Below are positions 14,054 to 60,381 of a stretch of 64,000 bases of DNA, piece after piece (the first letter of the stretch is position 1; the number at the start of each line of letters is the position of its first letter). Origin of the DNA: Lytechinus pictus (taxonomy: Eukaryota); the NCBI RefSeq assembly GCF_037042905.1, contig NC_087250.1:23066001-23130000 (forward strand), read 5' to 3'. The notes beneath the pieces were generated by a model. It was given only the letters and a program-made list of their open reading frames with translations. It had not been told where the DNA came from and ran no database searches. The translations under genes were made by a program, and so were the position numbers.

Positions 14054-14085
<32 letters not shown>

Positions 14086-14261: not shown

Positions 14262-14293
<32 letters not shown>

Positions 14294-30638: not shown

Positions 30639-30669
<31 letters not shown>

Positions 30670-30700
30670 CCATCAGCATCATCATCATCATCACCATCAG

Positions 30701-30746
<46 letters not shown>

Positions 30747-39063: not shown

Positions 39064-39196
39064 GGAGAGATGCCTAAGCACTACTCCATTCAAAATTAGA
39101 CATGACACTCCGTATCCAAACCAACCTAGTCAGAATGGTATACAGAGCTCGCTGACAGTGCTTAGCCGGCATGCTGTGTGACACCAATCAGGTAAT
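39064..39196 (-). ncRNA. Candidate Sm-class snRNA-like gene A
   Basis: CUCUGUAU-A-CCA-UU-CUGAC UAG GUUGG-UU-UGG-AUACGGAG hairpin, Sm site AAUUUUGA (39090-39097), 3' hairpin GGAGUAGUGC UUAG GCAUCUCUCC; CTAACC and AATCGATT upstream. 5' end approximate. Confidence 0.72.
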
Positions 39197-39504
39197 AATA
39201 TAATAATATATAATTAAATTATATTATTTTTAAAAGGTTAGCCTGCAAACAAATCTATTCTTAGATATGAAAGTTGGAGGATTAAATTCACTTTGACTGA
39301 AACATTTAAAATAAAAAATAAATATTTGTATTAATATATATGCATCAAACATAATTTTTTTAAAGGCATCCCCCTTTGGTTGGTAATGTTGGCACGAGAA
39401 AAAATACCTACGTAATCGATTCTGGATTAAAAAAAATAATAATCGGAGATCAAAAGAGGCAATCGAATAAGGGAAGATCCGAGTCTGCAAGCACAGTATG
39501 TGTG

Positions 39505-39620
39505 GGTGGGTGGGTGTACGAGGGTGTTTGGAGGTGGGTGGGTGTACGAGGGTGTTTGGAGGTGGGTGGGTGTACGAGGGTGTTTGGAGGTGGGTGGGTG
39601 TACGAGGGTGTTTGGAGGTG
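39505..39620. repeat. 28-bp G-rich minisatellite (~4 copies)
   Basis: Unit ggtgggtgggtgtacgagggtgtttgga. Confidence 0.85.
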
Positions 39621-40140
39621 CCGTGGCCGAGTGGTCTAAGCCTCTGACTATACATGGAAAAGTATTTCCCCTTCTACTAGCTTGTTTTTTTCCTCTCCTT
39701 TCCTTTAAAAACTTTTGTTCATTTGGGATGGATTTCCGTTAATCCAAGCTTTATCAATTTTCGCGTGAAACCAATGTTGACTGGAACTATACAGTGCGTC
39801 CCAGAAAAAAGGAAACCAAAATTCAGTGTAATTTGTTACCATCATAATTATGAATGTGCTTCATGAGATGTATATCTATTTAAAGATATAATTTCCCTCT
39901 TCATTATGAAGCCCATCTCAAAGTTCTTAATACACGCATGATTGAGTTAGAACAAATTTCCATTTGCAAGAGCAAATTAAGAATTTGAGTGAGTTTTTTC
40001 TGGCTTTTACTGTTATGTATTCGGAAAATAAAGTCTATTAATTTTAATATTCATTTGTTCATCTTTCATATGAGTCTTCGTGCTTGAAAGATTATACAAA
40101 TAATTAATGCACGTAAGCGCGTGCATGCAGGGCTGATTAA

Positions 40141-40534
40141 AGAGAAATGCCAGTAGTTGCAGTAAACACTGATTTCATGAGAAAGTCTGTAAAACCAGGC
40201 TTAATTGTCAGTATATCATCGAGGATCTAGATCTGGTACAGTTACACAAACTGAACTTTGTGAAATCTTGAAATCTACGCTGAAAAATGTTCACACTGAA
40301 GATCACCAACACAGATAGGCACACGTGGGACAGTGTATTATTATTGCTTGAATAAAGACCCGACGGAAGTGACCGAATCCGCGCTTATTTTGCTTATTTC
40401 TCAGCAATTACACAATTTCTTCCAGAATCCTTTGGCACATATTTTTTATTCATACAAACTGACACTTGGGTGGTCATTATATAAGATTCTGTAAAAAGTC
40501 ATTTTGAGATCGTTACCAGAACTGGAATTTATCT
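40141..40534. mobile_element. TTAA-flanked MITE (second Kolobok-like family)
   Basis: ttaa|AGAGAAATGCCAGT...ACTGGAATTTATCT|ttaa; shares its right TTAA with the next MITE. Confidence 0.6.
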
Positions 40535-42225
40535 TTAAAGGACAAGTCCATCCCAACAAAAAATTGGTTTGAATAAATAGAGAAAAATCCAACAAGCAAA
40601 ACACTGAAAATTTCATCAAAATTGGATGTAAAATAAGAAAGTTATGAAATTCTTAAGTTTCGCTTAATTTCCCCAAACAGTTATATGCACATCCTGGTTG
40701 ATATGCAAATGACGGGACTGATGACGTCACCCACTCACTATTTCTTTTGTATTTTATTATATGAAATATGAAATATTCTGATTTTTTCCCCCTTGTCATG
40801 TGAAATCGAGTTTTGTTTCTTCCTGAACATGTGGAATGAACATTGTTTAACATTATGTGGTTCAGTAAAGTTGGTCCTAAATGTCAAATTTGTAAAAATT
40901 GAAATATTGTATAATTCAAACAGTAAAAATCAAAAGAAATAGTGAGTGATGGACATCATCGACTCTCTCATTTGCATGTTACTGAGTTGTGCATATAACT
41001 GTTTTGTGAAAAATAAGCGAAACTTTAAAATGTCATAACTTTCTTATTTTACATCCGATTTTGATCAAATTTTCAGCATTATGCTTGTTTGATTTTTCTC
41101 TATTGATTAAAAGCAACATTTTGTTGCGTGTATGTTTGTTTTATACACTCCTCCCCTTGTAACTGAGTTGCCCCGAATGCTATATTTGATCTAATTTCTA
41201 GATAAATTATTCTAGATAATTCCCGACCTCGCACATAGCACATTTGATATGACGTCAGAGTGCGGGATAGTGCATTTTGGATGCCATAATGGAATTCGCT
41301 GAATATCATGTGATCCGATTTGGACCAATCAGATTACAGAACATTCTTGGGAGATGTTAAGATTGACGCATTGTCGAGTAAAAGTTGCATGAAAACATGC
41401 TTTATTTTCACTTAAAAGCGGCAGACAATGGGCTACCGGTAAAAGCGCTGAATGTGATTTTATGGTTGGCTTGAGTATTATGTTTGAATTTTTGTAAGAC
41501 TCGTAAAAAAAATGCTTGAAAGTGTGAGATGAGGCAGGGGCGGTGGATTGATGAAGGAGGGGGGGGGGTGACCCACTTAAAGAAAAACAAGAAAATGGCT
41601 TCAGTCTCCCTTTCAACTGTAAAAAAAAGTGATGTACCCCTTTTCTGTTGCGCCCCGCCCCTGCAAACATATTCTGCCGTCTCTTTGAAATTTAGCACGA
41701 ATAAAACGACTGACAGAAGTTTGAGATAAAACTTATCAAAATGATTAGCAGTGTAGCATTGAATTCTAATCATAGCTATAGACTCCAGTCCGCAACAATG
41801 AAGGGATGTTCTTCCCCGGCCCGAACAGCATTCACCATTAGCCGATTGTCTCCTGTTTTTAATCAAACGAACGTCCCGTTTTCACACGATCCATCAAATA
41901 GGTAGATTTCAAGCATGTTTTCATGCAGCTTTTACTCGACCATGCGTCATTCATATTTTATGCATAAGGTCTCATATGTAAGAGGAAAAGATGGATTGTT
42001 TTTGTTTTCCGAATAGCCAGTAAAAGCCAGCAATAATCACTCAAAATCATAATTTGCTCATGCAAATGAAAATTTGGTACCACCACTTTTCATTGTTGTA
42101 ACTCAGCCACGCGTGTATTATGAACGTTGAGATGTGTCTCAATTGAAAAAAGAGATGTATATCTTTCATTGATGTACATTTAATGAAGAAAACTTATCAA
42201 TTATTACGGTAAAAAGTATTACGGT

Positions 42226-42565
42226 GGAAGCGCCGTGGTGTAGCGGGTCTGACTCCCGCATTGTAATTAGAGGGTCGTGTGTTCGAATCCCACCATGGCC
42301 TAGCGTCCTTTAGCCAGGCGTCAATCCACACTTTGCCACTCTCACCCAGGTGTTAAATGGGTACCCGGTAGGATATGAAAGCCTATATGTAGTATTCCTA
42401 GCGATGGAGTCTTGGAACTCTTGTTGGAATGCTCCCCAGTGAGTGGAGAACTGTGCATACATTGTATGCGGGCATGCAAAGATCCGATGACCGGGGTAAT
42501 AATATATCTGTAAAGCGCTTAGAGACATTGTTCCGATGTGTTATATCAATACGGAATATTATTAT
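42226..42565 (+). mobile_element. tRNA-derived SINE
   Basis: gccgtggtgtagcgg...gttcgaatccc head; core atccacactttgccactctc.acccaggtg; related to the 46427 copy. Confidence 0.8.
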
Positions 42566-43015
42566 TTAAAAAGATACACTGAATTCATGTTTCCTTTTTC
42601 TGGACACACTGTATATTCTTTAAGAGTCTACACAGTGCTTCCCCTTTTCTAAACGAAACTTCCTGGAATTTACTCTCAAAGTTCTTGGATTTTTACAAAA
42701 TATCCGGAATTTTACAAAATTAATGTTCTCCAGTCTTCCATAAGTTATAATTCTGTTCTGTACACACACACAAAAAAATGAAATATAGGGCCCAGTGCCG
42801 TAATTGAGCCAAAAATTTTGAGGGGGCGAAACATGACGTAACGGGCAAAGTTTAGAGAGTTGCGAGCGAGCAAACATGTTGATATATTAATTAAAGAGAT
42901 CCAATTTCGTGATAGATTTTGACATATTAATTCAGAAAATAGTATTTTTTTCCGAAAATGATAACTTCCTGGATTCCAGGGAGAGTGTATTGCATCTATG
43001 TCTTGTCAGGGATGT

Positions 43016-43162
43016 AGGAGTAGTGCAGCAGCATTACTCCTTCTAAAATTGTTTGGTTGTTCCTCCTGTCCGATCCGACCTAGTCAGAACGAACAGGAGT
43101 CGCTGATCTTAGCCCGAAGGCTGAGCGGCTGGCCTGGCTTTGGCTTGGATAAGAATGTTGAT
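43016..43162 (-). ncRNA. Candidate Sm-class snRNA-like gene B (U2-like 5' segment)
   Basis: CUCCUGUUCG-U-UCUGAC UAG GUCGGA-U-CGGACAGGAG hairpin, AAUUUUAG, 3' hairpin AGGAGUAAUGC UGCU GCACUACUCCU; AATCGATT at 43383-43390. 5' end approximate. Confidence 0.72.
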
Positions 43163-44271
43163 AGAAACACTTAATATTCATTAAAAATTTACTTTTAAAA
43201 AGTAGTTATTTTATTTGTGAACATGAGATTTGGAGTGTGACAGTTGTTTTGTCTTCACTTTAACATACTTCATATTTATGTGTATATTTAAAAAATTCAA
43301 ATGACATTAAAATGTTACGATGTCTTAATGAAATTGTATGAATATACTCATATTGTATTGTTTGCTTGCTCTGCTAATCAATAATCGATTCCTGAGTAAT
43401 GAGCAATCGATTATTTCTCCAGAATGAGTCATTTGGCCTTTGCGCTGACCCTACTAGACACATGAAAAAGTCCCGGATTCGATCCCCGGCCACGACACTT
43501 ATATCAATCAGTGAGCAAGGCATTTAATCAACAATGTTCTTTGGTCTGTATTCAAATGCTATACTCATTCTTGATACCTTAGCTACACATATTTATGATA
43601 TTTTAGTTACACAGATTTCCTACATTTTAAAATTATTTTGTATCACGTCTCAATGATAAATATAATTTTGTTCATATTAATTTTTTTAAATAAATATAAT
43701 AGAAAAAACTCTTGTTAGATAATTTTAGTGCTGACGTTACAAAAATGTGTGTTTCCTGTGCATGTCAGCATTCTTTTGTACAATATTTCGGTAAGAGTGT
43801 GATGAAATGATGCTGAAATCGGATAGTGCAATGATACATTGATTTAAATGGGGCTTTCAGGCTAATTATGCATTCATGAAGTAAGATCTGAAGCCCAAGA
43901 AAACAAATCTGTGAGAACACTAAAATACTGCAATAGATATCAGGTCAAGCATTGTCCGCACCCGGACTTAGATTTGGTTTGGACGGGGGTGTGCGGGGTG
44001 GTTCAAAACCCATACCCATATTTACGGGTCATTTTGGCTGAAAAGGTACCCATTATTAAAATTTGACAAAAAGAAAGGTTATCACCCAAAATTGAAGGAG
44101 AATATGGATCCATGTTTAAGGCCAGTATCTAAAAATTGGGGCCATGGACCCATGTTTAAGGCCAGTATCTAAGAAGTGGGGCCATGTTTAGGGATTTTCC
44201 AGCATAAAACCATATAATAACCCATGTATAGGGATTTCTTCCAAAAAAAGCGACCCATTCCAGTGGCACAT

Positions 44272-44485
44272 TAGTCCAGATTGGACCTTGTTGTTTGGAA
44301 GTGCCCTTTCCCAAAGCTAACATAGAGGGCACATGACTCCCGATCTCTAATCAGCGCCAATCCACTCATCTTCCTTGGGGAGGGAAGATGAGTGGATTGG
44401 CGCTGATTAGAGATTGGGAGTCATGTGCCCTCTATGTTAGCTTTGGGAAAGGGCACTTCCAAACAACAAGGTCCAATCTGGACTA
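44272..44485. mobile_element. Palindromic MITE, TAG...CTA termini, 9-bp TSD (Academ-like or MULE-like)
   Basis: Near-perfect ~100-bp inverted arms; GTGGCACAT duplicated at 44263-44271 and 44486-44494. Confidence 0.8.
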
Positions 44486-46164
44486 GTGGCACATCCACGT
44501 ATGCCTTATTTCGTGAGTACCCCCCCCCCCCCCGGGTGTCCGCAGGCACTTGTAATGCAAAGTAGAAACAACAAAACTATAGTAAATTATTGCGTGATAC
44601 AACTGGTTACGTAATAGGTACTTATGTAAAAATTGTATTCGCATAGAGATTCAGATGTTGGTGTATATAATCATTTTTAAAGGTAAATGACAGTTGTTGC
44701 AGCAAATAATTATTTCATAAGAAAGTATTTTAAATCTAGGTTAATTATTGTCAAAATACTATCCAACATCTCGATCTGGTACATTAATGTAAACTTATCT
44801 TTGTAAAATCATGAAATCTTATCTCAAAATCGATAATTCTGATGATCTGATGAGGTGCCGTGGCCGAGTGGTCTAAGGCGCCTGGCTATACAAGTCCGGG
44901 GTTCAATCCCCGGCCGCGCCACCTATGCTGTGAGAAGGCTTTTCATCTACAATGCTCTTTTATCCTGCTTTCAAATAAATGGAAATGCTATGTGCATTAT
45001 CGGTAACTTGGTCTGCACTTGTTGAAAAAAAATCACTAACACAGAAAAGCATATGTGGGACAGTGTATTAATATTGCTTCGAAAAATGTCCGACATTTGA
45101 TGGAATTCCATATTTATTTTGCTAGTTTCTCAACAATTACGCATTTTCTTCCGGAGTCATTTCGCACACATTATTGAGCAAAGTTTCAATACAGTCGTGA
45201 ACCTGCCGACCATCCGTGACCTGGCCCGTGTTTCATCAACATTTTTGTGTAACAAGTTGTCAGATCTGACAACTTTCCTTGATTCTGATTGGCTGAGAGG
45301 CACTGTTACTATGGTAACTGTCGGATAAAACGTCTGACAAGTCCTTTATTGAAACGCTTCCCTGAAATCTATTGTGGTATTGAACATCCTCACATAAATA
45401 GTGTGTCAGCTCATGTGTCGGTGTCGGAAGGATAATTCTTGCCAAAATTCATATTAATGATTATATATAGGGCAATTATCTAACTTTATTTAAACTATTG
45501 TATTATTGCCTGGTGTAATCCAAATACCTCATTTATAAACAGACTTTTTTTATTGCATAAAATGCTGTCCGTATTATTACAAAGTCCTCTTATCTTGCCA
45601 ATTTGAAACCACTTTTTCCTCTTATTATTTCAGATTTTGAATATTTATGATTTAAATCTCTATAATATTGGAATTTCTATGTATCTTTGTTGCAGAAATA
45701 AAATTCCAATTCAAATGAAAAAAATCAATTCGAGTCTGATTTTTCACATTGTAATACAACATCATCCAGCAAATATCATTTTCCCCAAACAGCTCAAAAT
45801 TGTCTATTTTCTTTTAAGGTCCAGAAATATGGAACAATATTGAAAAAATTGTAAGAGAAAAAAAAACTTTGAACTCATTAAAATTTGATAAAAGATTGGA
45901 TTTTCCTGCATGTGTATAAAGTGTGTATGTGTCTGCATTAAGTTTAATTGTAAATTATTCAAAGTAACCACTACTTAAATTTACTGTCTCATTACATTTA
46001 AATGTTTAATATTGTATACACATGACTGTGCACTTGCTGTTTGTAAGGGAATAACCTTTGTAAACAAGTTTGCTTTTGCTATCCCGGCCCATCCACTTTA
46101 TTATAATAAGCTGTCTTGGCACACTTGTGGAATAAAAAAAAAAAAGAAGATTATTCATTCGTTG

Positions 46165-46276
46165 GGAGAAATGCCGAAACACGCCTCCATTCAAAATTAC
46201 GATCGTCTGCGCCTTCTACGACCTAGTCAAAGATGGCGTGGTACTGTAGCTATGAGCCACGCTAACAGCTAAAAAT
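46165..46276 (-). ncRNA. Candidate Sm-class snRNA-like gene C
   Basis: CGCC-A-UCU-U-UGAC UAG GUCG-U-AGA-A-GGCG, Sm AAUUUUGA (46191-46198), 3' hairpin with UUCG tetraloop and G-U pairs; AATCGATT at 46843-46850, pushed out by a SINE. Confidence 0.7.
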
Positions 46277-46426
46277 GAAGTTTTAATCAATTAAACCTGT
46301 TATTCAATAATATAAGATATGTTAACAAGCATAAACTCAATTTGCTGTATTTTTGGTGTAATTAAATACACTGTATTAATGTTGTATCTTTTTAAATAAA
46401 AATATGCAATGACTATTATAAATAGT

Positions 46427-46785
46427 GGAAGAGCCGTGGTGTAGTGGTTCAGACTCTCGCCTTGTAAACAGAGGGTCGTGTGTTCGAATCCCATCGCGGT
46501 CTAGCGTCCTTTGGCAAGGCGTAAATCCACACTTTGCCACTCTCGACCCAGGTGCTAAATGGGTACCCGGTAGGATGCGAAAGATATTGTATGTTTGATT
46601 TTGCCAGCGCCATAATGAGGCTGCGATGAATGCAAGGAATGCTCCCCAGGGAGTGGAAATTGTGCACTTTTCGTGTGGAATTGAATGAATCCAATGACCG
46701 GGGTAATAATATGCTGTTACGCGCTTTGAGCCATTCTGAAAAAAGCGCTCTATAAAACTTGGCTGTTATTATTATTATTATAAAT
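46427..46785 (+). mobile_element. tRNA-derived SINE inserted in the promoter region of snRNA-like gene C
   Basis: A/B boxes (tggtgtagtgg; gttcgaatcc), core shared with 42226, (TTA)n tail. Confidence 0.8.
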
Positions 46786-49493
46786 AATTGATGAATAAAT
46801 CATTAGTTTCAGTCAGTATTCTTATTCAAATATACCTGAAGTAATCGATTCTAGTATATGAAATTTGCCTTTATCTATACGCCGATTAACTCTTTGCACG
46901 CTGTATTACTTTTGGGGAATGACAATGACAATTGTTTCCATGTAATTTTACTTAATTTAGGATTTCCATATTGCACCATTGATACTTATTATTATATCCC
47001 TCTTATGAATATTCATGAGTATTCTAGATAAAAGATTGGTCAATTCTTTCTTTAACTTTTGTTCACAATCATTCGTTTTATTCTCCCATAGTCGTGATAA
47101 GGCGTGATGGTTGTAAAACATATTCGGTAATGTTATGTTAACCAGCTGGCGACTCATGATTTTGCTGTAACAAATGTTTTTATTATTAATTATTTTGTTT
47201 TGTTTTTTCTATCGACTCTAGCCAGCATACCAATTTAAAGAGTACAAATAAATTTCATCAGAAAGGACAATTACAGTATACACACATGTAAAGGAATATG
47301 GGAGCGTTATGCGGGTCGGGAGGGGGCACAAAAGTGAAATTCAGCACTGTTGCCTCTCACACATGCCACTCCCATGACATACATCAAATCAAGAAGATCT
47401 CCTTGATCAAATATATTATTCTCTTACACAAAATATTGCACATTGAAAAGTAGGGATGCAGGGGAAGGCGGTGGGGGGCAAAGAAAAAAATCATCGGCTT
47501 TTATGAAAATTCTAAGATGGCCACCACAGTTTTACAAAAACTCTGGTGTTGAGTTAACACCAGCCCGGAATCTATATATGCCCACACAAGAGAAGTGCTA
47601 ACAACACCATTTTCGTTTTGGTCTAACATCAGATACTTGTTTATACAACACCAATTTGATTCCAAAGGGGAGATGTTGCAATACTTCTCTGATGTGGACA
47701 TATAACGATTACGGGCTGGTGTTAAATCAACACCGGAGTTTTGGCAGTGTAACTGGACACTTCAAGCAATACAAAAAAATTTGTTTAAATTTTCTCTGAG
47801 GGTACACGGGAACTCCTTTTGCGACTAGACGAGCTCATAAATATTGGAGAAATAATATTACATTAACATGACTTTGTATAGCGCTTGTTTAGAGTTGTTT
47901 ACACTTAGTTTTAGATGTAAAAAAAATTGATAAACGATATATGGTTTCAATTTTGACTTGTAGATAGTGAATGATGGAGAGCTTGTTATGTAAATTGGCA
48001 AGCTATTCCATAGATTAGGGGAAGTAAGAGCAAATGCGTGATCGACAAGTGTGTCGTTTGCTGTTTGCAATATTATTATTATTGTTAGTATTATTATCCA
48101 TTAATTTCATCATTACTATCATTATAATCCATTATTATTACTATTACCATCATTATTATCATTATAATAATAATAACAATTAATATTATCATTATTATCA
48201 TACTTTTCATGTCCATGCTAATCATGTACATTTGTAAATATTTCCCGATATTCTGAACATTATTGACTCATAAATTTTATACATTGTAAATATTTTTCAT
48301 TATTCTGAACATTTCTGGACACATAATGTGTATGATTGAAATGTTATTGATGATACTAATCCATAATATTAACTGATAATAATTGGTAATATTTCTGATG
48401 TCATCTGGTATTTTTCTTAGTTTCACTCGGTCATAATAAAATTAAATTTAATGAATACAAAGTGAAGTCGATTGCAATTTACAATAGATGATTTGTATTT
48501 AACTTATTATTAATTCAGTTATTTGTCAAATTCTTCTGTGTAGCTTACTTTCCTATCTAATCGTAGACAAGCTCTTGCAGAGTGTCAATCAATAATAAAG
48601 CATTCAATTGAGATTCAAAACAGCTTGGATAATGTCCACAATCAAGTCAAATTACTGCATTATTTTTTTCTTTTCTTTTATTATTCATATTGCAATGAAT
48701 CAATTCAAATGATAATTGCTGATTGATCCATGTTACATTTGTTTCGCCAAATAAATTGTTGCCGGTTTAATTTGTATACTTTTAATTCATATGTTTCTTT
48801 GTATATTCTTATACTGACCTGGATGGAGGTAAAGGGGTGTGGGAAGGAAGACCTGTGGGTCATGGTAATTTAGTTAACCTTTTCCAAACGCAGGCAGCCC
48901 CTTCATCTCTATTCCAGGTCCTTTGTACTATGTCATGTATATCCTATTGTTTATGTAATTTGCATTGTACTGTAATTTATGTTTTTTGAAATGCCGAATG
49001 AATAATAATAATAGTTCTGATTTCTTAATAAAAAAAAAGTGATCGATACCCTTATCACATGTGGAGGTGCCGTTGCCGAGTGGTCTAAGGCGCCTGACTA
49101 TACATGGAAAAGTCCGGGGTTCGATCCCCGGCCACGGCACCTATGCCCGTGAGCAAGGCATTTAATCTACAATGCTCTTTTATCATGCGTTTAAATAAAA
49201 GGAAATGCTATATGCATTATTGGTAACTAGGTGTGCACTTGTTTAAAAAAAAGTCCGGTACAGCTTTGTACAGATTGGACAAAACAGTAATCGATTAATA
49301 CCGAGGGAATATTTTCAAAGTTTTAATCATATTTAAACTTACAAAAACCCCGTTGTAGTTACTAATATATAATTTATTTGATTGCACTCTGAAAATGTAA
49401 TTTAAAAAAATATGTAGGGTAGCAAAAAAAATCAATTTATTACTAACTATAACGATTTTATGCTTTAAATTAAATATTAGCAAATCTTTGAAG

Positions 49494-49575
49494 ATCCCAA
49501 GCAACTGCATTTAGTGCCAATATTGTATATATTGGAAATTTTGGCAGGAGGTATTACCTAGTGTATCTGCCTCCT
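49494..49575 (+). ncRNA. Candidate Sm-class snRNA-like gene G (short type, + strand)
   Basis: CCAAUAU UGUAU AUAUUGG hairpin, Sm AAUUUUGG (49537-49544), 3' hairpin AGGAGGUA...UGCCUCCU; CTAACT at 49443 and AATCGATT at 49289-49296 upstream. Confidence 0.6.
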
Positions 49576-49593
49576 CTACTCAAACCGGTCCAC

Positions 49594-49984
49594 GGTCAAA
49601 TGCCATTTCGTCTAATTTCCTTCTTATCTCGTCTGCTATCGTTTGGTCTTTCATCAATTCGTCCACTTACCACTTGGACTTATAGCCATTTTGTTACTCA
49701 CCATTTCGTCTATTAAACAGTTGGTCCAATAGCCATTTTATCCATAACACAATTGGTCTAATTTGATAAGTGTTAATTGGGCGAAATGAATGAAAAGAAA
49801 ATGGATATTAGATCAACTTGTTCTTAGACGAAATGGCCATAGAAGAACTGGTGATTAGACGAAGTGATTATTGGACCTAATGGTTGTAAGACGAAATGTT
49901 GATGGGCGGAATGGCATTAGACTAAATGAAGGTAGAGCATGTGACGAATGGACGAATTGGTAATAGACGAATCGGCAGTTTACC
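49594..49984. mobile_element. Palindromic MITE (related copy ~38610-38960)
   Basis: ggtcaaatgccatttcgtcta...tagacgaatcggcagtttacc with internal ttcgtcta/tagacgaa subrepeats. Confidence 0.6.
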
Positions 49985-50429
49985 AACACATCTACATCAG
50001 AAAATTTAGATGATTGAAAAGTACTTAGTAGAACCTCGGTCATATTTGCTATACGGCAGCCGTACGGCGAGTCGAAAAAAAACGTGTTAACATTTTCTAT
50101 ACCAGCTACATGTAGGTACGAATATGAAAATGAATAAAACGGCCGCCGTAGAGCAAATGTGACTGGGGTATAAGCTATGCACCATTGCGCCATGGAAGTG
50201 GGAGGTCTAAACTTCCTACATCCCTGATTGTACTGAGTGATGTTATAAACAATTAAGGCCCATATTCTCAAAAGATACTTCAATAATTGTATACCATGAT
50301 GGTATCAAACCATGGACTATGTACAACGGTTATTTTATCTCGTGCTCAAAGGTAAATCAAATTAAATGCGCACTTTCTGCAAAATGAGCTTAAAATGGAG
50401 CGTCTTAATGAATTACATTACAAATAATG

Positions 50430-51215
50430 AAAAAAATTATGAGTGCAATGGACAGAATACTTCATGAGATGAAAGATGAAATGATCCATTAAACGCGGCG
50501 TACCCGAGTTGAATGGATCTTACACGTCATCTTTCACCGAACGAAGTATTCTGTCCATTGCACGAATGATAAGAACATTCATTATTTGGTTTATTATGAC
50601 ACCTAAAATAATATTATTTTTCATATGAAAATTTATGAATTTCGATGCAAATTATGCTCACAGAGTGCGAGCTCGGTCTGTTGATTATTATACAAAATAT
50701 GTCTATGAGGGCAATGGACAGAATATTTCATGAGGTGAAAGATAAAATGATCCATTCAACGAGGCGTAGCAGAGTTGAATGGTCATTCTTTTCATCTTTC
50801 ACCGAACGAAGTATGCTGTCCATTGCACCAATGATAAGAACATTCATTGTTTGGTTTATATGACACCTAAAATAATATTATTTTTCATATGAAAATTTAT
50901 GAATTTCGATGCAAATTATGCTCACGGAGTGCGAGCTCGGTCTGTTGATTATTATACAAAATATGTCTATGCGGGCAATGGACGGAATATTTCATGAGGT
51001 GAAAGATAAAATGATCCATTCAAAGAGGCATAGCAGAGTTAAATGGTCATTCATTTCATCTTTCACCGAATAAATATTCTGTCCATAGCACGAATGATAA
51101 GAACATTCATTATTTAGGTTTATCATGACACCTGAAAATATATTATTTTTCATATGAAAAGTTATGAATTCGATGCAAATTATGTTCACGGAGTGCGAGC
51201 TAGGTCTGTTGATTG
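50430..51215. repeat. Three tandem ~265-bp units, each with an internal long inverted repeat
   Basis: gcaatggac.gaata recurs at ~50446, ~50711 and ~50976. Confidence 0.85.
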
Positions 51216-52144
51216 TCGTGTACATACAACATACGCGCTGCCAACACGCATAGACTAATACACACAATTTCTTGCATCATGATACAATGCGCTTTTGGTG
51301 TTACCCCGGATTTAGATCGAGCTACCATCACCGGCGCTCAGTGCATGAAAGGAATTAATCCTGCCGGGTACCCATTTACCTCACCTGGGGCCCGTTTCAT
51401 AAAGCTGTTCGTAAGTTAAGAGCGACTTTAAGAACGGCTGGTGATCCTTTCTTGTGGTAAACGATGTTCACCATTAATAATTATTTAGCTCGTAAGAAAG
51501 GATCACCAGTCGTTCTTAAAGTTGCTCTTAACTTACGAGCAGCTTTATGAAACACCCATCTGGGTTGAGTGCAGCACAATGTGGATAAATTTCTTGCTGA
51601 AAGAAAACACGCCATGGTTAAGATTCGTACCCACGACCTCTGTTTGAAAGGCGAGTGTCAAAGTTATTATTCTCATCATCATCAATTTTATTATTATTAA
51701 CATTATTATTAATATCATTATCATTGTTATTATTATCAATATTATTATTGTAAATGTTATTATTATCACTACTGTTGCTGTTTTTATCATTATTAAGATC
51801 AATATTATTATCATACTTTCATGTCCATGCGAATTATGTCCCAGTAATGTGTGGAGACTACACATTACTTTCTGATGTGATCGATACCATTATTACAATC
51901 ATGTCCGATACAGGTTTGTACAGATTTGATGAACAATAATCGATTCATACCCTGAGAGTATTTTCAAACTCAAAATCATAATTAAACTTAAAAAAACGAC
52001 TATGTAGTTGTCAATTATGTTTAAAATTATTTATTTTATTGCACTATGGAAATGAAATAAACTAAAACAATATCAATGATAGCAAAAGAAGTTTTAAGTT
52101 GATACTAACTATGACAGTTTTTGCTTTAAAACAATTATGAACAG

Positions 52145-52228
52145 ATCTTCACCTCTCTATTTACCACTCTAGGCGACACGCCTATTATTTATTTTGGCAG
52201 GAGGTAGCACTTCTGAAAAGCTACCCCC
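52145..52228 (+). ncRNA. Candidate Sm-class snRNA-like gene H (short type, + strand)
   Basis: UAGGCG ACA CGCCUA hairpin, Sm-like AUUUUGG (52191-52197), 3' hairpin GGAGGUAGC...GCUACCCCC; CTAACT at 52105, AATCGATT at 51938-51945. Confidence 0.55.
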
Positions 52229-53594
52229 AAATGTTCCAACTCTTCATCAGGAAATCTGGAGGAAGCAAAGTAATATCTCAGTATCATTTGCCCTACGACA
52301 GCTGTACGCCGGGTCGAAAAGTCGTTATAACATTTCTTATCAGCTACATGTAGTAACAAAGAAACCGCGTAGCAAGGATTTCAATTTAGAGGGCGGTAAA
52401 TGCACGCGAAGCAGGGAGTGCAGGGAGGGGGAGTTTCCTCCTCCAGCGCAAAGCTTTCGGTGTTTCATAAATTAAAATGAAAGAGAGCCGCCTTTCTTGT
52501 CTCTAGTACTTATATCAGCTCCAATTCAGTTGACTTTGTTGTGATTTTGAACCTTGCTTTCAAAAGTGATTGTGAACGCACAAAAAAAGGGATAAAATGG
52601 AGGAAATTAAAACAAATTATTACCCCGCGAGAAGCGCGGAAGCTTAAGCTTTTTATCAAGCTTTTTTCCAAAGAAAATGGTCCCGAGGTAAGGGTATTCT
52701 CTAAGTTATATTGAATGCTTCCCTTGGAAAGATCAGATTTGATTACAAACAATTTAGCGACAGTGCATATCTTTAACTCGCAAAACAAAGGAGAAGAAGG
52801 GTATATGCCGGTAAGAACATTTTCCTCCCTGCGCAGAACAATGAAACTCTGAAATTTCAAAGGGCGGACGATTCATCAAATGCAGATATCTCTGATACCC
52901 CCATCGGCTCGAATTCAATTGGATTTTCTAAGATTATTGAACTTCATTACAAGGAAAATAGTGCGCAAAAAGTTGAAACTTCTGTGATTTGTTGAAATCA
53001 TATAAAAAAGCCTGATGTATAATTTCCTTGACTTATCATTAAGCGCTTCATTTTGAATGATAAAGAAACTTTAGTGTTATTCAAAATTTCAAACTGAGGG
53101 CGTAAAATAGGACAGGAGATGAATGTGAAGGGAAATGACATGAAGTTTGATAGAATTTGATAAAAAAATATTATACTTTTTTTTATTAAATACGACACGA
53201 ATTTTATACCATCCTCTTTGTAAATTAGGAACCTGTTTGCCCCCAAATTATGGTTGTTTAGTAATAAGCCTTCCCAATGCCTGAAACCAAGTGAACTTTT
53301 CTTTCTTACCGATGAATCAAAATGCTCTTTTGCCGATTTAACTCTACGTCATAATAGTTGCCTGGACTTTACTCATTACGTCACAATATCTTCTAAAAAT
53401 GCACCTGTCGCGTTATGTTGTTGCGGATTGTATTTATTGTGCGTTGGTATCATCACCAAATGATGCAACCTGTTTTGGATAATAAAATCATCCCTGAAGA
53501 AGGTCTATGACCGAAAATTCGGAAGATTATGTCTCCTCACGGCGTTTCTATTACGTCTTCTTTTGTTTATATATATATATATATACATATTGTG

Positions 53595-54005
53595 TGAAAG
53601 AAATGGATGAAGAGAACAATGGTAGGCGTAGCTTAAATCAAGGTTCCCCAGAGCTATCTACCCTTTGGAAAAATTGGTGATGCCGAAAAAATGTCTCTGC
53701 CGGGAATCGAACCCGGGCCCCCAGCTTTGAACGCCGGTGCCCTAACCACTAGACCACAGAGACGGGTTAGTGGCTAGGGCGACCCCTATCAGATTGACCG
53801 TCAGATAGACAGATTTTCGACACTATACAAATTATAATTTCCTTTGTCGGGTGAAGGTGGGTTTTGAACAAAGCTGGGGGCCCGGGTTCGATTCCCGGCA
53901 GAGACATTTTTTCGGCTTCACCAATTTTTTCAAAGGGTAGATAGCTCTGGGAAACCTTGATTTAAGCTACGCCTACCATTGTTCTCTTCATCCATTTCTT
54001 TCACA
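53595..54005. mobile_element. tRNA-containing element with ~135-bp inverted duplication, in (TA)n
   Basis: 53595-53729 is the near-exact reverse complement of ~53869-54005; flanked by (TA)n runs. Confidence 0.65.
53692..53763 (-). tRNA. tRNA-like cloverleaf (tRNA-Glu-like body, UCA at anticodon position) inside a repeat element
   Basis: GTCTCTG/CAGAGAC acceptor stem, A box TGGTCTAGTGG, CCGGC/GCTGG anticodon stem with loop GT-TCA-AA, T arm CCGGG TTCGATT CCCGG, then T6. G32 is non-canonical. Confidence 0.5.
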
Positions 54006-54057
54006 AATATTGAAATAAAAGAGTTGCCAAAGCTGTTGTACATGTATAACTTCACAC

Positions 54058-54120
<63 letters not shown>

Positions 54121-54127
<7 letters not shown>

Positions 54128-54312
54128 GAGGCAAAGTGTTTTGTACTTAGTTCCAACAGTTTATTTTGAATTCCAAATTTTCGACGTTAGACATACGTCT
54201 TCTTCAGGGATAAAGCTCCCTGAAGAAGACGTATGTTTAACGTCGAAAATTTGGAATTCAAAATAAACTGTTGGAACTAAGTACAATGCATTACCACTTT
54301 GCCTCATTAATA
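54121..54312. mobile_element. Penelope-like element remnant: inverted duplication with hammerhead-like core
   Basis: ~90-bp arms around a 6-nt spacer; each arm has CTGAAGA-A-GACGT...ACGTC-GAAA; embedded in (TA)n. Confidence 0.6.
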
Positions 54313-55880
54313 TCTTCTATGTCCAACACGCGGAACTCAATATCGTCATATATATATATATATATATATATCCATTCTGGAAGCTTCTAGTATTGTCTTT
54401 AAAAAGAACATTCTGCTTCTTTTTAGAGCAATCCTAATTCTATATAGAAGACTCTTGAATGACCTCAGTGAAATTAACAATGTAAACAACATAGCTAATC
54501 CTATTGTCCTTTTCCCCTGCTAGCAGTCTATTGTCTATTGTCCATTGTACATTTCAAAAATACCATACATTACTCAGCCTCATTTTTACAAAGCTTAATT
54601 GAGGCATTCTGGAATATTCTTATTACGCAATGAACTTCTTAGAGAAAAAAAAAACTACATGGATGAATGTAATTTCTCTTCCAATTCTTCTTATACATAA
54701 CACTACATAACACCAGTTGTTGCTACACGCATTCTTGCTTTAAACAGGGACGTGAGACGCCCCTGCTTTAAATATAAAGGGGGAGTGAACTGTATGTGGT
54801 CTCTCATTGACTATGTGTTATGAATACATAGTCTTAAAATGTACTTTTTCAGATATCTAATAATACTACAGAGAATAAATTGACCTTTACTTGTATTTGT
54901 TTAGAGAAACTAAAATGTTTTGAGAGGAAAAGTAATTGTTTTGCTGACTGGTAACATAATTATTGCGGTATAAATGTACTGAGTAGTTATTATAGCATGT
55001 CATTATTCATGTGGGTCTATATTACTTGACTACACTAGCATTATGGGTCAGGAAATTGGCCAGGTATGAGTAGTTGAGGACTCGAGGTGGCGCTATTGGT
55101 TCGTATCTGCTTTAAATGAAAACATTTTAAAGGAAAATATGAATAATCAAGACATCAGCGTCGGTGCTTATCTCATTGAATATTAAACCACCATGCCACT
55201 AGAGTTCCTGAGCTTCTTCTGATCATGCGCAGAATAGAACTCCTAACTGGCTTGCTGCAGTCTACAGAGTGGATTTGGCGCTTGAAAATCACATATGTAT
55301 TATTAAATCAAGGTTTGACAATACCCTTGTACACTTAAAGGAAACCAGAACCCAAGAGAAGAAGCAATCTTATTGGAAAGAGTAAAATGAGAGGAACAAG
55401 TTAAAAGAGCTTCATCAAAATCGGTTATGAATAATAAGCAAGTTATGGACGTTTAACAAGTCTTGTTGTACTTTCTATGGCGATCCTCAAATTGGCAAAC
55501 GTGCTTCTAAATGGCTGATTTTGCGGACAACTCTCCATTTGTTTTGTACACAAATTTTCAGATTTCCCCCCTTTATTTTACATATTTCACTTTATCTCCT
55601 CCTGACCTTGACATATGTGATGAGAATTATATTTTCCCATGACACATTTTGTGCTCATAATTGCAAGATGCAATTTGAAAGATAATGAGGAAAATCTGAA
55701 AATTTGTGAACAACACAAATGGAGAGTTGTCCACAAAATCAGTCATAGAAAGTACAAGACTTTTTAAACGCCCATAAATTGCTTATTTCATAACTGATTT
55801 TGATAAAATTGTTTTTAATTGTACCTCTCATTTTACTCTTTCCAATTATCTTGCTTCTCTTTTACGGTTTTGGGAACATT

Positions 55881-55997
55881 TCGGAGAGGTGCTGGCGCAC
55901 TTCTCCGATCAAAATTTGCCCGTATCCGACCTGACCTAGTCAAATCGGCATAAGGGAGCTCCGGCGTTTGCTTAGGCTGCTCAGCCTGCCCATAGAT
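55881..55997 (-). ncRNA. Candidate Sm-class snRNA-like gene D
   Basis: CCGAUUUGAC UAG GUCAGGUCGG hairpin, Sm AAUUUUGA (55909-55916), 3' hairpin UCGGAGAAGUGC GCCA GCACCUCUCCGA; CTAACT begins 50 nt upstream of an AUC; AATCGATT at 56215-56222. Confidence 0.75.
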
Positions 55998-56039
55998 TAT
56001 AAAGAGATTTTTATTTATTTAAAATTAAATAATTTTTAA

Positions 56040-56322
56040 AAAGTTAGTCGCTAAAAGGGTTACAATTATATAGATTAAAATTTTCGATAGTAATTCTAGA
56101 ATCAAATTGTTTTTAAATTTTCAATTCTGAGATTTTTCAAATACAATCCAAATAACTACGCATGAATGTAGTTTTTGAAAGGTATTATGGTTGCCCCCCA
56201 AAATATGATTTTATAATCGATTTAGTCCTTTTTTAACCTATCAAACAAAGTCAGATATTAGACAGCATGTACAGACCCTATTGAAGTTTTTATCAACACG
56301 TGGGTCTTCACAAAAGACTAAG
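56040..56322 (-). promoter_or_regulatory. Putative snRNA-type promoter of gene D (PSE-like CTAACT + distal AATCGATT block)
   Basis: Blocks alignable by eye with the regions upstream of E and F (ctatc.aacaa, acagaccc, ttgaa..ttt.tca.cac.tgggtctt, aaagact). Confidence 0.6.
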
Positions 56323-58079
56323 TCATAGTCCATTCCATAATTTTTTTTTGAACAAACAAGTGCACACCGAGTTACCAATAATGCATATAGCATTTCCATT
56401 TATTTGAAAGCAGGATAAAAGAGCATTGTAGATTAAATGCCTTGCTCACGGGCATAGGTGCCGTGGCCGGGGATTGAACCCCGGACTTTCCATGTATAGC
56501 CAGGCGCCTTAGACCACTCGGCCATTCCATAAAATGTTGCTTTGAATCAATACAGAAAAATCAACAAGCATAACGATAAAAAATCATAAAAATCGGACGT
56601 GAAAGTAAGAAATTTCTGATATTTCATAGTTTTGCTTAGTTTTCACAAAACAGTTATTATGCACAACGCACTGACATGCCAATGAGAGGGGGGTCGATGA
56701 TATCCCTCACTCACTTTTTTTTATTGTTTGAATTACAATAATTCAAATATATCAAGTTTTACAGATTTGACAAAAAGGACCTGAACCATAAAGTGTTTAA
56801 AAAATAATAATTCCACATGTTCAGTGAGGGATTAAACTTTGTTTCAAAGGACAATGAGGAGAAAATTATTCATTTTCCATGTAATAAGATACAAAAAGTG
56901 AGTTGGTGACGTCATCAGTTACCTCATTTGCATACCGACATATTTTGTGAAATTAAGAGAAACTTAAAAATGTCATAACCTTCTTACTTTATAACAGATT
57001 TTATTGAAAATGTCAGTGTTATTGTGGTTGGATTTTTCACTTTACTCAAATCGACTTTTTTGTTTGGGTGGACATGTACTTTAAATTAAAAGAAAGAAAA
57101 TGGCGCACTTAGCTCCTTTGATCGCTTTCAACTGAATTATTGATACTTAAAATACATCTACAATCATACAAAAAGTCAAGTCCACCCCAGAAAAACGTTG
57201 ATTTGAATCAGTAGAGAAACATCCAACAAGCGTAATGTTGAAAATTTCATCAAAATCGGATATAAAATAAGAAAATTATGACAGTTCAAAGTTTTGCTTA
57301 TTTTTCACCAAACAGTTATACGCACAACTCAGTGACAGGCAAATCAGAGAGTGATGTCCGTCAATCACTATTTCTTTTGTTTTTATGGTTTGAATTATAC
57401 AACATTTCATTTTTTACAAATATGACAAAATTGATAAGGACCAACTTGATTGAACCATGCTAATTGCACATATTCATGGTAAAATAAAATTTCTTCCACA
57501 CGAGGAGAAAAATAAAATATTTCCAATTTTATATAATAAAATAGAAAAGAAATAGTGAATGGGTGACGTCATCAGTCTTCTCATTTGCATACAGACCAAG
57601 ATGTGCATAACTGTTTTTTTTTCTTTTATTAAGTGAAACTTTAAAATGCTATAACTTTCTTATTTTAATTCCGATTTTTATGAAATTTTCAGTGTTATGC
57701 TTGTTGGATTTTTCGCTTTCTATTCAAATGAACTTTTTGTTGGGGTGGACTTGTCCTGTAAGGGAATGATCGACTTCAACCTTGGGTTTATCACTATACC
57801 TGTATACCTTACCCTAACCATGAAACCCTATTGCAACCTTATTAACCCTAATACCTTTGTCACATTTCTTCTGAGGCGGCTTCAAACCACCTATAATGTG
57901 GCAGGTACAAAACAAAAAAACATGTTAATACGACTGTCTTCGAGCAAATGTGACTGAGGAATTATCTTATATCCTAGAGGAAAAAAAGCATAGAGCGATC
58001 AATAATTGTCGCCGGAACAAATGTCGTCGGAATAAATGTCGTGACACTTGATGGCTGATAAGGAAATTTTCACTATACA

Positions 58080-58197
58080 GGAGAATGCTATCGTAGCATT
58101 CACCCGACCAAAATTTCAGTAGTGTGGCTCCGTATCCGAACGACCTAGTCGGACGGACCGGAGCCAGGCTCCACTACACTTCACAAGTATCAATGAT
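58080..58197 (-). ncRNA. Candidate Sm-class snRNA-like gene E
   Basis: GUAGUG..UGGCUCCG-G-UCCG-UC-CGAC UAG GUCG-UU-CGGA-UA-CGGAGCCA-CACUAC long stem, Sm AAUUUUGG (58108-58115), 3' hairpin GAAUGCUA CGA UAGCAUUC; CTAACT at 58238-58243, AATCGATT at 58445-58452. Confidence 0.75.
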
Positions 58198-58235
58198 GGC
58201 GAGAAGAATTTATACAAATATATTATTTTTTTTTT

Positions 58236-58556
58236 CTAGTTAGCGTGCTTTAGAAATTGTTTGTTAATATATAGGTTAAAAGTTTAGATTTTTTTGAATT
58301 ATTACTGTTTTAATTTCTAAACAAAAAAATTTCGTGAAAAAATTTGCAAAAAAGATTAAAATAGCTATGATTGAATGAGACATTTTAAAGGTATCGTGGT
58401 TGACATTTCATAAAATAATATCGATAATAAAGATAAAATAATGGAATCGATTCTTTTTTTTCTATTTAGCTATCGAACAAAGTGAAGAGCCTAGTCTGCA
58501 TGCACAGACCCAATTGAATTTTTATCAACACAGGTGTCTTAAAAAAAAGACTAGAA
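58236..58556 (-). promoter_or_regulatory. Putative snRNA-type promoter of gene E
   Basis: Same ordered conserved blocks as D and F. Confidence 0.6.
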
Positions 58557-58937
58557 CATATATTAAAGGTCGAAATCACTCAAGAAAAAAAAGTGGATTT
58601 GAATCAATAGAGTACTACGATATTAAATATCAAACAAATAACCAAAAAATTAGATTATTTGGCTATTTTTTATTTACAGGAAATAGAGCACAAAGTAAAC
58701 AAAATAATTATTATATTAATAAAAAAATATGATAATCCAAATAATCCGTATTGGCTGGCAAGAAGTTCTTTATCAAAAGTCCACAATGCTGGCGATGATG
58801 AATTTTTTTAACAAGTGTACACCTCGTTATCAATAATGCGTGAAGTATTTCAATTTATTTGAATGCAGGATAAAAGAGCACATGTGCTGTGGCCGGGGAT
58901 CGAACCCCGGACTTTCCATGTATAGCCAGGCACCTTA

Positions 58938-59416
58938 CCGCCCTTTCACAGGGTACCAAACTCGTAATTTGAATGATGATTCCAGTGAAAAATAATTCTA
59001 ATTACGAACTTTTAGCACGTGTGAAACCAAACTAGAATCCCGAACGTTAAGCACAATCACGAATTCAAATTCTACTCCGGAGGTGAATTCCAGTTAAGTT
59101 TCACTCAAATTACGGTACGAAGTTTACGTCTGAAAGGGTTGACCTCCAAACAATCTTTTGAGGGGCGGAGCTTACGTGACCTTTCGAGCACTTCCGTAGA
59201 TAATACAATTTCATGCGCTCATCGTAGTTTCTTTTTTTGCGATGCAGTGCTTTGATTGGGTTTGATTGACAAGTCACCAAGGACACAATACCGCCTTCGC
59301 TCAGGAATTCGAATTCAAATCACAGTTTTCGAGTGAACTTGTGAGCGGGACAATGATTCTAAAGACGAAATGCAATCATCACAATGATGATTCACGATTC
59401 TCGTGTGAAAAGGCCC
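58938..59416. mobile_element. PIF/Harbinger-like MITE splitting a SINE
   Basis: TTA TSD, imperfect TIR ccctttcaca...tgtgaaaagg; SINE halves rejoin across it. Confidence 0.65.
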
Positions 59417-59639
59417 TTAGACCACTCGGCCACGGCACTTCCATTGATGTTGGCATACGATTTCAACACACCTTCCGATCTTATTGTTACTGTGTGTAAT
59501 TAAAGAGAGCAGGAGACAGATAGATATGAGATTATACAGTGAAAAGAAAAGTAGAAAGAGGGAAGGAGGGAAAGATAAATGTCCCCAAAATGCTTCTAGG
59601 ATAAAGGGCTGGGTCATACTCTCGGCTCAGCCAAAATGT

Positions 59640-59879
59640 ACACAGCAAAAACTCCGGTGTTAACCGGTGTACATAGTGGACCACACCAGTTATTTTACAC
59701 CGGTGTTAAATTGACAGTGTTAGTTTAACACCTATAGGTGTTATTATAACACCTTCGGTTATTACATTTACACTCTTTGGTGTTATGTTCAGTCTCTAGG
59801 GTGTAATTTTAACACCTCAGGGTGTGGTCCTCTATTAACACCAACTGGTGTCAGTTTTAACACCACAATTTTTACAGTG
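59640..59879. mobile_element. Short CAC...GTG (EnSpm-like) MITE
   Basis: tacacagcaaaaa...tttttacagtgta with internal ggtgtt/aacacc subrepeats; related copy at ~47505-47752. Confidence 0.5.
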
Positions 59880-60218
59880 TAGAACACTTGTACCAATCTA
59901 TTGCCAGAAAGTATTATGTAATACTTGTATTCATATATTGCGACGATTTCCAACTAAAGGTAAGTGATTAACATCTAAAGAGATCGAAAGGGATAGTTAT
60001 ACAATATTGATGAAACCACAGTTGCATAAATTATTGTTGCATATATTGCCAACAGTTCCGCGTTGACTGTGGGAACAAGCCATTTCAAAATCAATGAGTA
60101 TATCTTCTCTTTTTTCAATTTATCAAAAGCCATCAGGGTCACGTGTTACAGTAACGCACTTCCAAATGTTCGGCTCATGATCAGCCTGGATTGTTTGGGA
60201 AGGTAATGAAGAAATTCG

Positions 60219-60341
60219 GGAGAAACGCTAAGGCACTTCTCCGTTCAAAACTTGAGTATATAAGGCTACGCAACCGATCCGACCTAGTCAGATCGGCTTA
60301 TGGTGCCCCATGTCTGCGTTTGCACCTAATATATCTTGTAT
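60219..60341 (-). ncRNA. Candidate Sm-class snRNA-like gene F
   Basis: AGCCGAUCUGAC UAG GUCGGAUCGGUU hairpin, Sm-like AGUUUUGA (60245-60252), 3' hairpin GGAGAAGUGC CUUA GCGUUUCUCC; CTAACT at 60384-60389, AATCGATT at 60565-60572. Confidence 0.72.
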
Positions 60342-60381
60342 AAAATTCAAATTTCATATAATTAAACTATATTCTTAAAAA

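Follow-up and report, generated by a model that had tools for sequence, protein, structure and literature searches.

Six small nuclear RNA-like genes sharing a near-invariant hairpin tip in the sea urchin Lytechinus pictus, a probable orphan family of the Sm class

A stretch of 64,000 nt from the sea urchin Lytechinus pictus (assembly GCF_037042905.1, NC_087250.1:23,066,001-23,130,000, forward strand; hereafter the window, by which we mean this stretch as a whole) raises the question of why one nine-letter word should recur at the tips of hairpins whose stems have drifted apart. The word, GACCTAGTC on the plus strand and GACUAGGUC on the minus strand, occurs exactly at 43077, 46220, 55933, 58142 and 60281, and a sixth site one base removed from it, AACCTAGTC, lies at 39123. 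A preliminary description of this DNA had named these six positions, five exact and one variant that keeps a G-U pair, and they were reproduced by our motif scan and shuffles; the hairpin arms quoted there were also correct on recheck. We consider it somewhat better than an even bet (about 55%) that the sites mark the genes of a lineage-specific orphan family of Sm-class small nuclear RNA (snRNA)-like molecules, matching no known RNA family, possibly derived from U2 and known from one genome, in which the tip is a specific recognition site.

Six homologous units on the minus strand

The exact 9-mer is much more frequent than chance would predict, with 5 occurrences in the window against 0.19 +/- 0.39 expected, and none of 100 dinucleotide shuffles contains five or more. 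When one mismatch is allowed the count is not significant (7 against 4.79 expected, with 20 of 100 shuffles reaching 7), and the site at 39123 is accepted not from this count but because the whole surrounding unit is homologous to the other five (94.9 bits). The seventh one-mismatch match (56316-56324, minus strand) falls inside an unrelated transposon end. Across the 812-Mb genome the 12-mer YTGACTAGGTCR is not enriched: it occurs 100 times and its reversed control 189 times, and the 21-kb cluster described here accounts for 4 of the 100.

Minus-strand segments of 400 nt surrounding the six sites were aligned and trimmed to the core, which yielded an alignment (A2) and a covariance model (R1). 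The six sites belong to six homologous minus-strand units, or paralogs, that score 76-95 bits with R1, the next match in the window reaching 18.7 bits (Table 1). Each unit consists, in order, of an upstream element with a TAAC core, an A/T-rich box, a variable 5' part, a hairpin, a linker, a U-run and a terminal hairpin. The 5' part (about 25-35 nt) contains a small stem-loop, which is followed by UAAG in four of the six copies; the main hairpin is irregular, spans 11-23 bp and has the apex C-UAG-G; and a short linker separates it from the U-run. The latter reads AAUUUUG in four copies, AAUUUUA in copy 2 and AGUUUUG in copy 6, the Sm consensus [AG]AU3-6G[AG] (RAU3-6GR) being canonical in 4/6. 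Directly 3' of this site all six copies have a stem-loop of the form GGAG..GUGC-loop-GCA..CUCC (88.9% of helix 2 cells are paired). With RNA starts placed 57 nt past the promoter core, RNAs of about 100-132 nt are predicted, their 5' ends likewise being predictions.

Table 1 Coordinates of the six units and of associated transposon-end fragments in the window (copies numbered by position)
Feature	Coordinates	Strand	R1 score	Tip	Inner hairpin	U-run or Sm site	3' hairpin	Proximal sequence element (PSE)-like core	Remarks
Copy 1	39064..39180	-	94.9 bits over 39064-39171	GACUAGGUU 39123-39131	39116-39138	Sm site AAUUUUG 39091-39097	39064-39087	GGCTAACC 39237..39240, then A/T-rich TATA-like stretch	Predicted RNA ~117 nt; 5' end predicted only, 57 nt downstream of TAAC
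Copy 2	43017..43148	-	91.8 bits	43077-43085	43070-43092	U-run AAUUUUA 43044-43050	43017-43040		Predicted RNA 112-132 nt; 5' end ambiguous
Copy 3	46165..46268	-	80.9 bits	46220-46228	46213-46235	Sm site AAUUUUG 46192-46198	46165-46188		T12 run ~20 nt downstream
Copy 4	55883..55986	-	87.0 bits	55933-55941	55926-55948	Sm site AAUUUUG 55910-55916	55883-55906	GACTAACT 56043-56046	
Copy 5	58078..58190	-	76.4 bits	58142-58150	58135-58157, within 23-bp hairpin	Sm site AAUUUUG 58109-58115	58078-58105 (longer)	CGCTAACT 58239-58242	
Copy 6	60219..60329	-	95.3 bits	60281-60289	60274-60296	Variant U-run AGUUUUG 60246-60252	60219-60242	CGCTAACTGTTTTT about 60376-60390	
Transposon-end fragment (copy 4)	56208-56320	-							Not part of RNA; BLAST 72-80% identity among the three fragments
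Transposon-end fragment (copy 5)	58470..58553	-							Not part of RNA; identity as above
Transposon-end fragment (copy 6)	about 60557-60673	-							Not part of RNA; identity as above

The pairing pattern identifies both the structure and the strand. Counted outward from the UAG loop without gaps, stem positions 1 and 2 are invariant in the six copies (C-G and A-U), and at position 3 five copies have G-C and the remaining one G-U, while positions 7 and 8 carry three and four different standard pair types, respectively. Hairpin lengths are 11, 12, 16, 16, 17 and 23 bp. Over the inner 10 positions of all copies we count 45 Watson-Crick pairs, 8 G-U pairs, 0 A-C pairs and 7 unpaired positions, and the excess of G-U over A-C means that the RNA strand is the minus strand, which also gives the more stable fold in five of the six units. 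Folding z-scores of the six copies are -2.9, -4.8, -0.7, -1.7, -4.6 and -4.0. In the alignment fitted to the model, pairs fill 88.5% of cells, a level equalled by 8 of 500 shuffles; shifting the partner by 1-3 columns lowers this share to 32-51%. Both sides have changed in only three pairs of the six-copy alignment. The hairpin is consequently well supported by register and stability, and weakly by formal covariation. A possible pairing of a 5' GCUAAGCAC with the 3' hairpin loop is confined to copy 1 and was treated as chance.

Conservation among the copies is concentrated in a few elements. Pairwise identity over the whole RNA is 39-62%, with the 5' part and the linker near random and the hairpin (with its tip), the U-run region and the 3' hairpin conserved. 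The tip forms the longest invariant block of the alignment, at eight consecutive columns against four for the U-run, and is the best-conserved element of six old paralogs, which bears out the earlier claim of a near-invariant tip on stems that have diverged and still pair. For pairs that include copies 1-3, identity of the flanks (0.45-0.53) is at the random level (null 0.49-0.51), whereas identity of the hairpin region is 0.52-0.66 in all 15 pairs (null 0.48 +/- 0.04). The persistence of the tip, U-run and 3' hairpin in older copies whose flanks have become random argues for purifying selection acting on these parts of the RNA.

Flanking sequence is still common to copies 4-6, part of it being the end of a dispersed transposon approximately 330 nt upstream, and we therefore interpret these copies as younger duplicates of one unit. 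This transposon end is a block of ~75 nt with CTAGTCT ... AGACTAG ends, present in at least 40 dispersed copies on many contigs of the genome. Its identity led us to reject the conserved block ~330 nt upstream as a distal enhancer. GACTAG, which forms the core of the hairpin tip, is also present in the transposon ends; we take this to be coincidence. Between transposon and promoter the flanks of copies 4-6 are alignable (z 2.4-5.2), whereas the 5' parts of their RNAs are not (z 0.7-1.1; segments of 24-37 nt), suggesting that in the young copies the flank evolves no faster than the 5' part, although segments this short bar a stronger claim.

Likeness to known snRNAs

For comparison, the authentic U1, U2, U4 and U5 genes of the L. 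pictus genome were located with Rfam models. At -61..-55, CTAAC or a close variant of it (such as CCAAC or CTCAC) is found in the genes for U1, U2 and U5; a TATA-like box near -30 is present as well in the tandem U2 gene; and all four gene types have the box AAAGAAAGA 10-20 nt past the 3' end. In the six-way alignment of unit promoters TAAC is invariant, extended to CTAAC in four, and is followed by an A/T-rich, TATA-like stretch. In copy 6, CTAACTGTT reproduces exactly the upstream element of a U1 gene; this copy also shares ACTGTTTTT with the tandem U2 gene and matches the upstream element of the latter at 11 of 12 positions. The authentic genes for U5, U1, U2 and U4 occur in tandem arrays (at C13:21.63-21.68, C2:31.96-32.01, C8:33.24-33.28 and C14:25.10-25.12 Mb, with periods of about 1.36, 1.4, 1.04 and 1.2-1.5 kb, respectively), together with a few dispersed copies that have different flanks. 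Such tandem snRNA arrays are typical of sea urchins, and those of U1, U2 and U5 fit the echinoderm origin assumed in the preliminary description.

A link to U2 in particular emerges from copy 2, in which 19 of 22 positions are identical to U2 nt 8-29, the segment comprising stem-loop I and GGCUAAGAUCA; 1 of 10000 shuffles scores as high. This is the only significant match among 42 copy-by-snRNA comparisons (p about 0.001). U2 stem-loop I followed by GCUAAGAUCA is found in copy 2 only, and three further copies keep the stem-loop and UAAG alone. Moreover, four of the six copies have UUUUGAA[CU] after the U-run, a feature that among seven snRNAs of the genome is found only in U2, and the promoter layout of the units, a candidate upstream element combined with a TATA-like box near -30, is U2-like. 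Given these similarities, a diverged U2 duplicate is the most likely origin, and the family probably goes back to the duplication of a spliceosomal snRNA gene, most plausibly that of U2, followed by divergence; gene conversion of copy 2 alone could also be the source of the U2 likeness. Differences from U2 are nevertheless considerable: the units have one hairpin instead of stem-loops IIa and IIb and one 3' hairpin instead of III and IV, and they lack both the branch-point recognition sequence GUAGUA (0/6 copies) and any match to RF00004. Two further resemblances were discarded. In copy 5, CTTCTCG and GTGTAGT are spaced nearly as in U2, yet these 7-mers occur at chance level and the first lies upstream of the predicted start; and the 3' hairpin of copy 6 is identical to U1 stem-loop 4 at 20 of 26 positions, which is not significant (p about 0.03 before correction for 42 tests).

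Searches against known families returned nothing resembling the units. In Rfam 15 at gathering score no family covers the copies, the only matches in the window being two to tRNA, and at E<=10, over 23.5 kb and on single genes, only trivial short matches (E>=0.088) overlap them. RF00020 (U5) does not match the copies at E<=10, against 48 canonical U5 matches elsewhere in the genome, and RF00004 (U2) gives no match to the copies, single genes included. Canonical U1, U2, U4, U5, U11, U12 and U4atac are all present elsewhere in the genome, and with U11, U12 and U4atac accounted for, the units are not stand-ins for a missing minor snRNA. The Rfam U7 model had no genome match, but with just 65 of ~190,000 candidates scored this carries little weight. 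The U7-type Sm site RUUUNUCYNG occurs in 0/6 copies and the UCUUU box in 1/6. The preliminary description had observed that the tip hairpin precedes an Sm-type site much as U5 loop I does, yet without the invariant sequence of U5, and this holds throughout, since loop I GCCUUUUAC is found in 0/6 copies.

A genome-wide motif search had been suggested in the same description, and two independent searches of this kind (tip and U-run; U-run and 3' hairpin) placed full members of the family only in the 21-kb cluster. Of the 41 non-cluster matches to tip and U-run, 8 were scanned with R1 and the rest are excluded indirectly, in that none recurs in the search for U-run and 3' hairpin. R1 was applied to selected loci (sets of 15 and 7), and it finds no unit in the 40 kb downstream of the window. 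A search of genome DNA with copy 1 recovered only copy 1 itself, missing the five paralogs and thus proving blind at such divergence. A pattern scan of metagenomes gave 0 matches, and no description of such RNAs was found by word searches of the literature on sea urchin snRNAs or by the tip string; among the matches listed, those to the tip string were primers and unrelated sequences.

Several known systems share parts of this anatomy. U5 is similar in size, in its succession of long irregular 5' hairpin, Sm site and terminal hairpin, and in the core of an snRNA-type promoter. However, U5 has an 11-nt loop I with GCCUUUUAC where the units have a 3-nt UAG loop, and the units possess an extra 5' stem-loop and do not match RF00020. 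The SmY RNAs of nematodes are multi-copy, clustered, small Sm-class RNAs in which hairpins flank the Sm site and the stems of paralogs diverge, and they are tied to spliced-leader (SL) trans-splicing. The units resemble SmY in their clustered copies, in the hairpins around the Sm site and in their diverging stems. They differ in that no Rfam family matched any unit at E<=10. SL trans-splicing itself is without evidence in sea urchin, as far as the available text of the transcriptome study indicates (PMC3460201). Sea urchin U7 is likewise encoded by clustered genes for a small Sm-type RNA in which a variable 5' part precedes a U-rich site and a 3' hairpin; in the accessible part of its description (PMC5054213), however, it has the site RUUUNUCYNG, a UCUUU box and a length of 57 nt, against the predicted ~100-130 nt of the units and the near absence of these motifs from them.

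The closest known case is Drosophila LU (Like-U). The available sections of its report describe an orphan snRNA of the Sm class that has an snRNA promoter, folds into covarying stem-loops and contains a single short region that is nearly invariant, and the authors suggest an origin by U5 duplication and rapid divergence (PMC4053861). According to the same sections, LU is a verified transcript, TMG (trimethylguanosine)-capped and Sm-bound, whose invariant region is single-stranded and complementary to U6 (PMC4053861). The units, by contrast, are known from genes alone, and their invariant block is a hairpin tip for which no snRNA complement was found among the seven snRNAs compared. Moreover, LU is described there from a single D. 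melanogaster locus (PMC4053861), as opposed to six diverged and clustered copies.

Alternative explanations

Several observations weigh against the reading of the units as an Sm-class snRNA-like family. The likeness of their promoters to those of snRNA genes rests on a core of 4-5 nt; of 84 comparisons of whole unit promoters with 14 snRNA promoters only two reach a z of 2 or more, and most fall short of significance; and the upstream element is ambiguous in copies 2 and 3, each of which offers more than one candidate. With so short a core and such ambiguity, the 5' ends of the units are predicted rather than mapped. The 3' box AAAGAAAGA is missing, a match with <=2 mismatches within 70 nt being found in only 2/6 copies (background 0.195), and the U-runs of copies 2 and 6 are non-canonical. 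Covariation is not significant at n=6 (score 0.284 against 0.257, with 102 of 500 shuffles equally high). Finally, in the raw RNA-seq run X21 mean depth is 0 in the bin of copy 2, 0.1-0.2 in that of copy 3 and about 1 in that of copy 6. However, the X21 library may exclude RNAs of ~110 nt and there is no authentic snRNA to serve as calibrator, so that these depths weigh only against high abundance in that sample. A search of sequencing runs listed no RNA run as containing units, and the word shares of 0.04-0.06 in the runs that were listed derive from transposons between the genes, and are uninformative on the RNAs.

The main rival explanation, unlikely in our view although to be taken seriously, is that an old tandem duplication of an snRNA-like gene has fallen silent, and that the shared blocks are remnants rather than the product of selection. 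Such a decaying array would fit the absent 3' box, the two degenerate Sm sites, the almost nil X21 depth over copies 2 and 3 and the weak covariation statistics, and in copies 4-6 identity from hairpin to Sm site (0.56-0.71) is indeed no better than that of the transposon block (0.70-0.76). Decay does not readily explain, however, why older pairs that are random outside the unit retain the 8-column block, the U-run and the 3' hairpin, or why stems that differ in their letters still pair over 11-23 bp; nor did motif and DNA searches of the genome find an intact master copy from which pseudogenes could have come. An improbable alternative holds that the units are functional though diverged forms of a spliceosomal snRNA resembling U2 or U5, and that they are incorporated into spliceosomes. 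The U2-like stem-loop I and GGCUAAGAUCA of copy 2, the U2-like UUUUGAAC context and promoter layout, and a hairpin positioned as in U5 all speak in its favour, but neither GUAGUA nor GCCUUUUAC occurs in any of the six copies, even single genes find no U2 or U5 match in Rfam, and U2 similarity is significant in one copy only (1/42 comparisons).

We consider it highly improbable that the units are RNA polymerase III genes of the U6 type, with the T4 run as terminator and an RNA of ~70-100 nt ending in UUUU. Within the supposed Sm site TTTT alone is invariant while the flanking A and G vary, and the upstream element, the A/T-rich box near -30 and the lack of a 3' box would all suit such genes; a sea urchin U6 gene reportedly requires a TATA-like box and a proximal element. 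Against this, the hairpin past the T-run is conserved in sequence and pairing in all six copies, and so is most likely transcribed, and the U2 gene of this very genome pairs this promoter layout with a T5 run inside the gene. It is equally hard to credit that the nine letters are conserved as DNA instead of RNA, serving for example as an intragenic site bound by a chromatin or transcription factor. The tip may resemble two facing half-sites of the nuclear-receptor type (TGAC / AGGTC), and GACTAGG and CTAGTC occur also ~330 nt upstream of copies 5 and 6. These upstream occurrences are, however, the ends of the dispersed transposon, and the lack of genomic enrichment of the 12-mer (100 against 189 for the control), together with the constant position of the tip at the apex of a strand-specific hairpin, speaks against a role at the DNA level, as does the RNA-level signature of 8 G-U against 0 A-C pairs.

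The suggestion to which we give the least credence is that the units encode spliced-leader RNAs, in which UAG/GU at the tip would be a splice donor (the stroke marking the cut) and the 5' parts polymorphic leaders. AG/GU is invariant, positions -2, -1, +1, +2 and often +5 fit a 5' splice site, and SL RNAs have stem-loops with an Sm site before the last hairpin, a layout similar to that of the units. The would-be leaders, however, are ~60 nt long and unrelated between copies, and position +3 is C or U in all six. A leader in use would be abundant in mRNA reads, whereas X21 depth is 0 over copy 2 and 0.1-0.2 over copy 3. A sea urchin transcriptome study states, in its available text, that there was no significant evidence of SL trans-splicing (PMC3460201).

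Genomic surroundings and possible role of the RNAs

Elsewhere in the window, a tRNA-like sequence at 53692-53763 (minus strand; 59.7 bits to the tRNA model) folds as an ordinary 72-nt cloverleaf with anticodon UCA, and is labelled tRNA-SeC by ARAGORN. With ~25 nt of flank on each side it is present in at least 40 genome copies at 80-99% identity, and as a dispersed repeat it is therefore a tRNA-derived mobile element and not a single-copy suppressor tRNA gene. Long microsatellites at 13070-14373 ((ATGATG)n, ~217 units) and 30639-31323 ((ATC)n, ~228 units) account for the open reading frames seen in several frames and for the spike in GC skew near 13 kb. Between the snRNA-like genes, long inverted repeats at 38688-38954, 44311-44449, 54142-54286 and 55513-55749, which match plant and animal miRNA models far below gathering scores, are probably small inverted-repeat transposons. 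A 332-codon open frame at 62925-63923 (minus strand) matches the reverse-transcriptase zinc-binding region weakly, below the Pfam cut-off, and probably represents what is left of a retroelement.

If the units are indeed genes of an orphan Sm-class family, RNA polymerase II would make from each of the six an RNA of ~100-130 nt, in which a fast-evolving 5' part with its stem-loop would be followed by the hairpin capped by C-UAG-G, a single-stranded Sm site and the terminal hairpin. An Sm ring would be loaded by the Sm site together with the adjacent 3' hairpin, as in other Sm-class snRNAs, and the invariant tip, carried on a stem free to vary in sequence, would be where a partner specific to the family docks. 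A protein that reads the triloop and the three pairs closing it is a likelier partner than a second RNA. The preliminary description had also entertained an RNA-pairing loop, an option that gains no support from the duplex energies of the tip with U1, U2, U4, U5, U11, U12 and U4atac, which are no better than those of shuffled tips (p 0.32-0.98; U6, U6atac and U7 were left out). The U12 of this genome (C4:13344830-13344983) contains a hairpin of two CCUAGG words (GAGCCUAGGUAGCCCUAGGUUC) and shares CUAGGU with the tip, and its duplex is not significant (p 0.40). It is the lack of snRNA complementarity, the apex position and the absence of genomic enrichment that lead us to favour a protein that recognizes the triloop and the three closing pairs in a sequence-specific manner. 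Musashi and hnRNP A1, whose motifs the tip recalls, bind single-stranded RNA; a 3-nt loop closed by an invariant C-G pair would suit them poorly, and nothing ties the tip to them.

A more elaborate version of this scheme, which we regard as doubtful, envisages modular, echinoid-specific Sm small nuclear ribonucleoproteins (snRNPs), in which a constant scaffold of tip, Sm site and terminal hairpin recruits one dedicated protein while the hypervariable 5' module provides each paralog with an RNA target of its own, as in U7 or the viral HSURs. The 5' modules have no detectable homology even in the youngest copies (z 0.7-1.1 against 2.4-5.2 for the flank). Under such an arrangement the six RNAs would be six different guides as opposed to redundant copies.

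The set of animal Sm-class snRNAs is generally regarded as nearly closed, comprising U1, U2, U4, U5, U7, U11, U12 and U4atac together with rare orphans such as fly LU and nematode SmY. Should the orphan-family reading hold, L. pictus would add a further orphan family, this time in a deuterostome, and would indicate that new snRNPs keep arising from duplicated spliceosomal genes. Should the copies instead be silent, the locus would still offer a clean example of the decay of an snRNA gene array. As members of an active family, the paralogs would be old enough that the functional core alone survives, the invariant hairpin tip included, and the tip may then provide a handle for finding the partner of the family.

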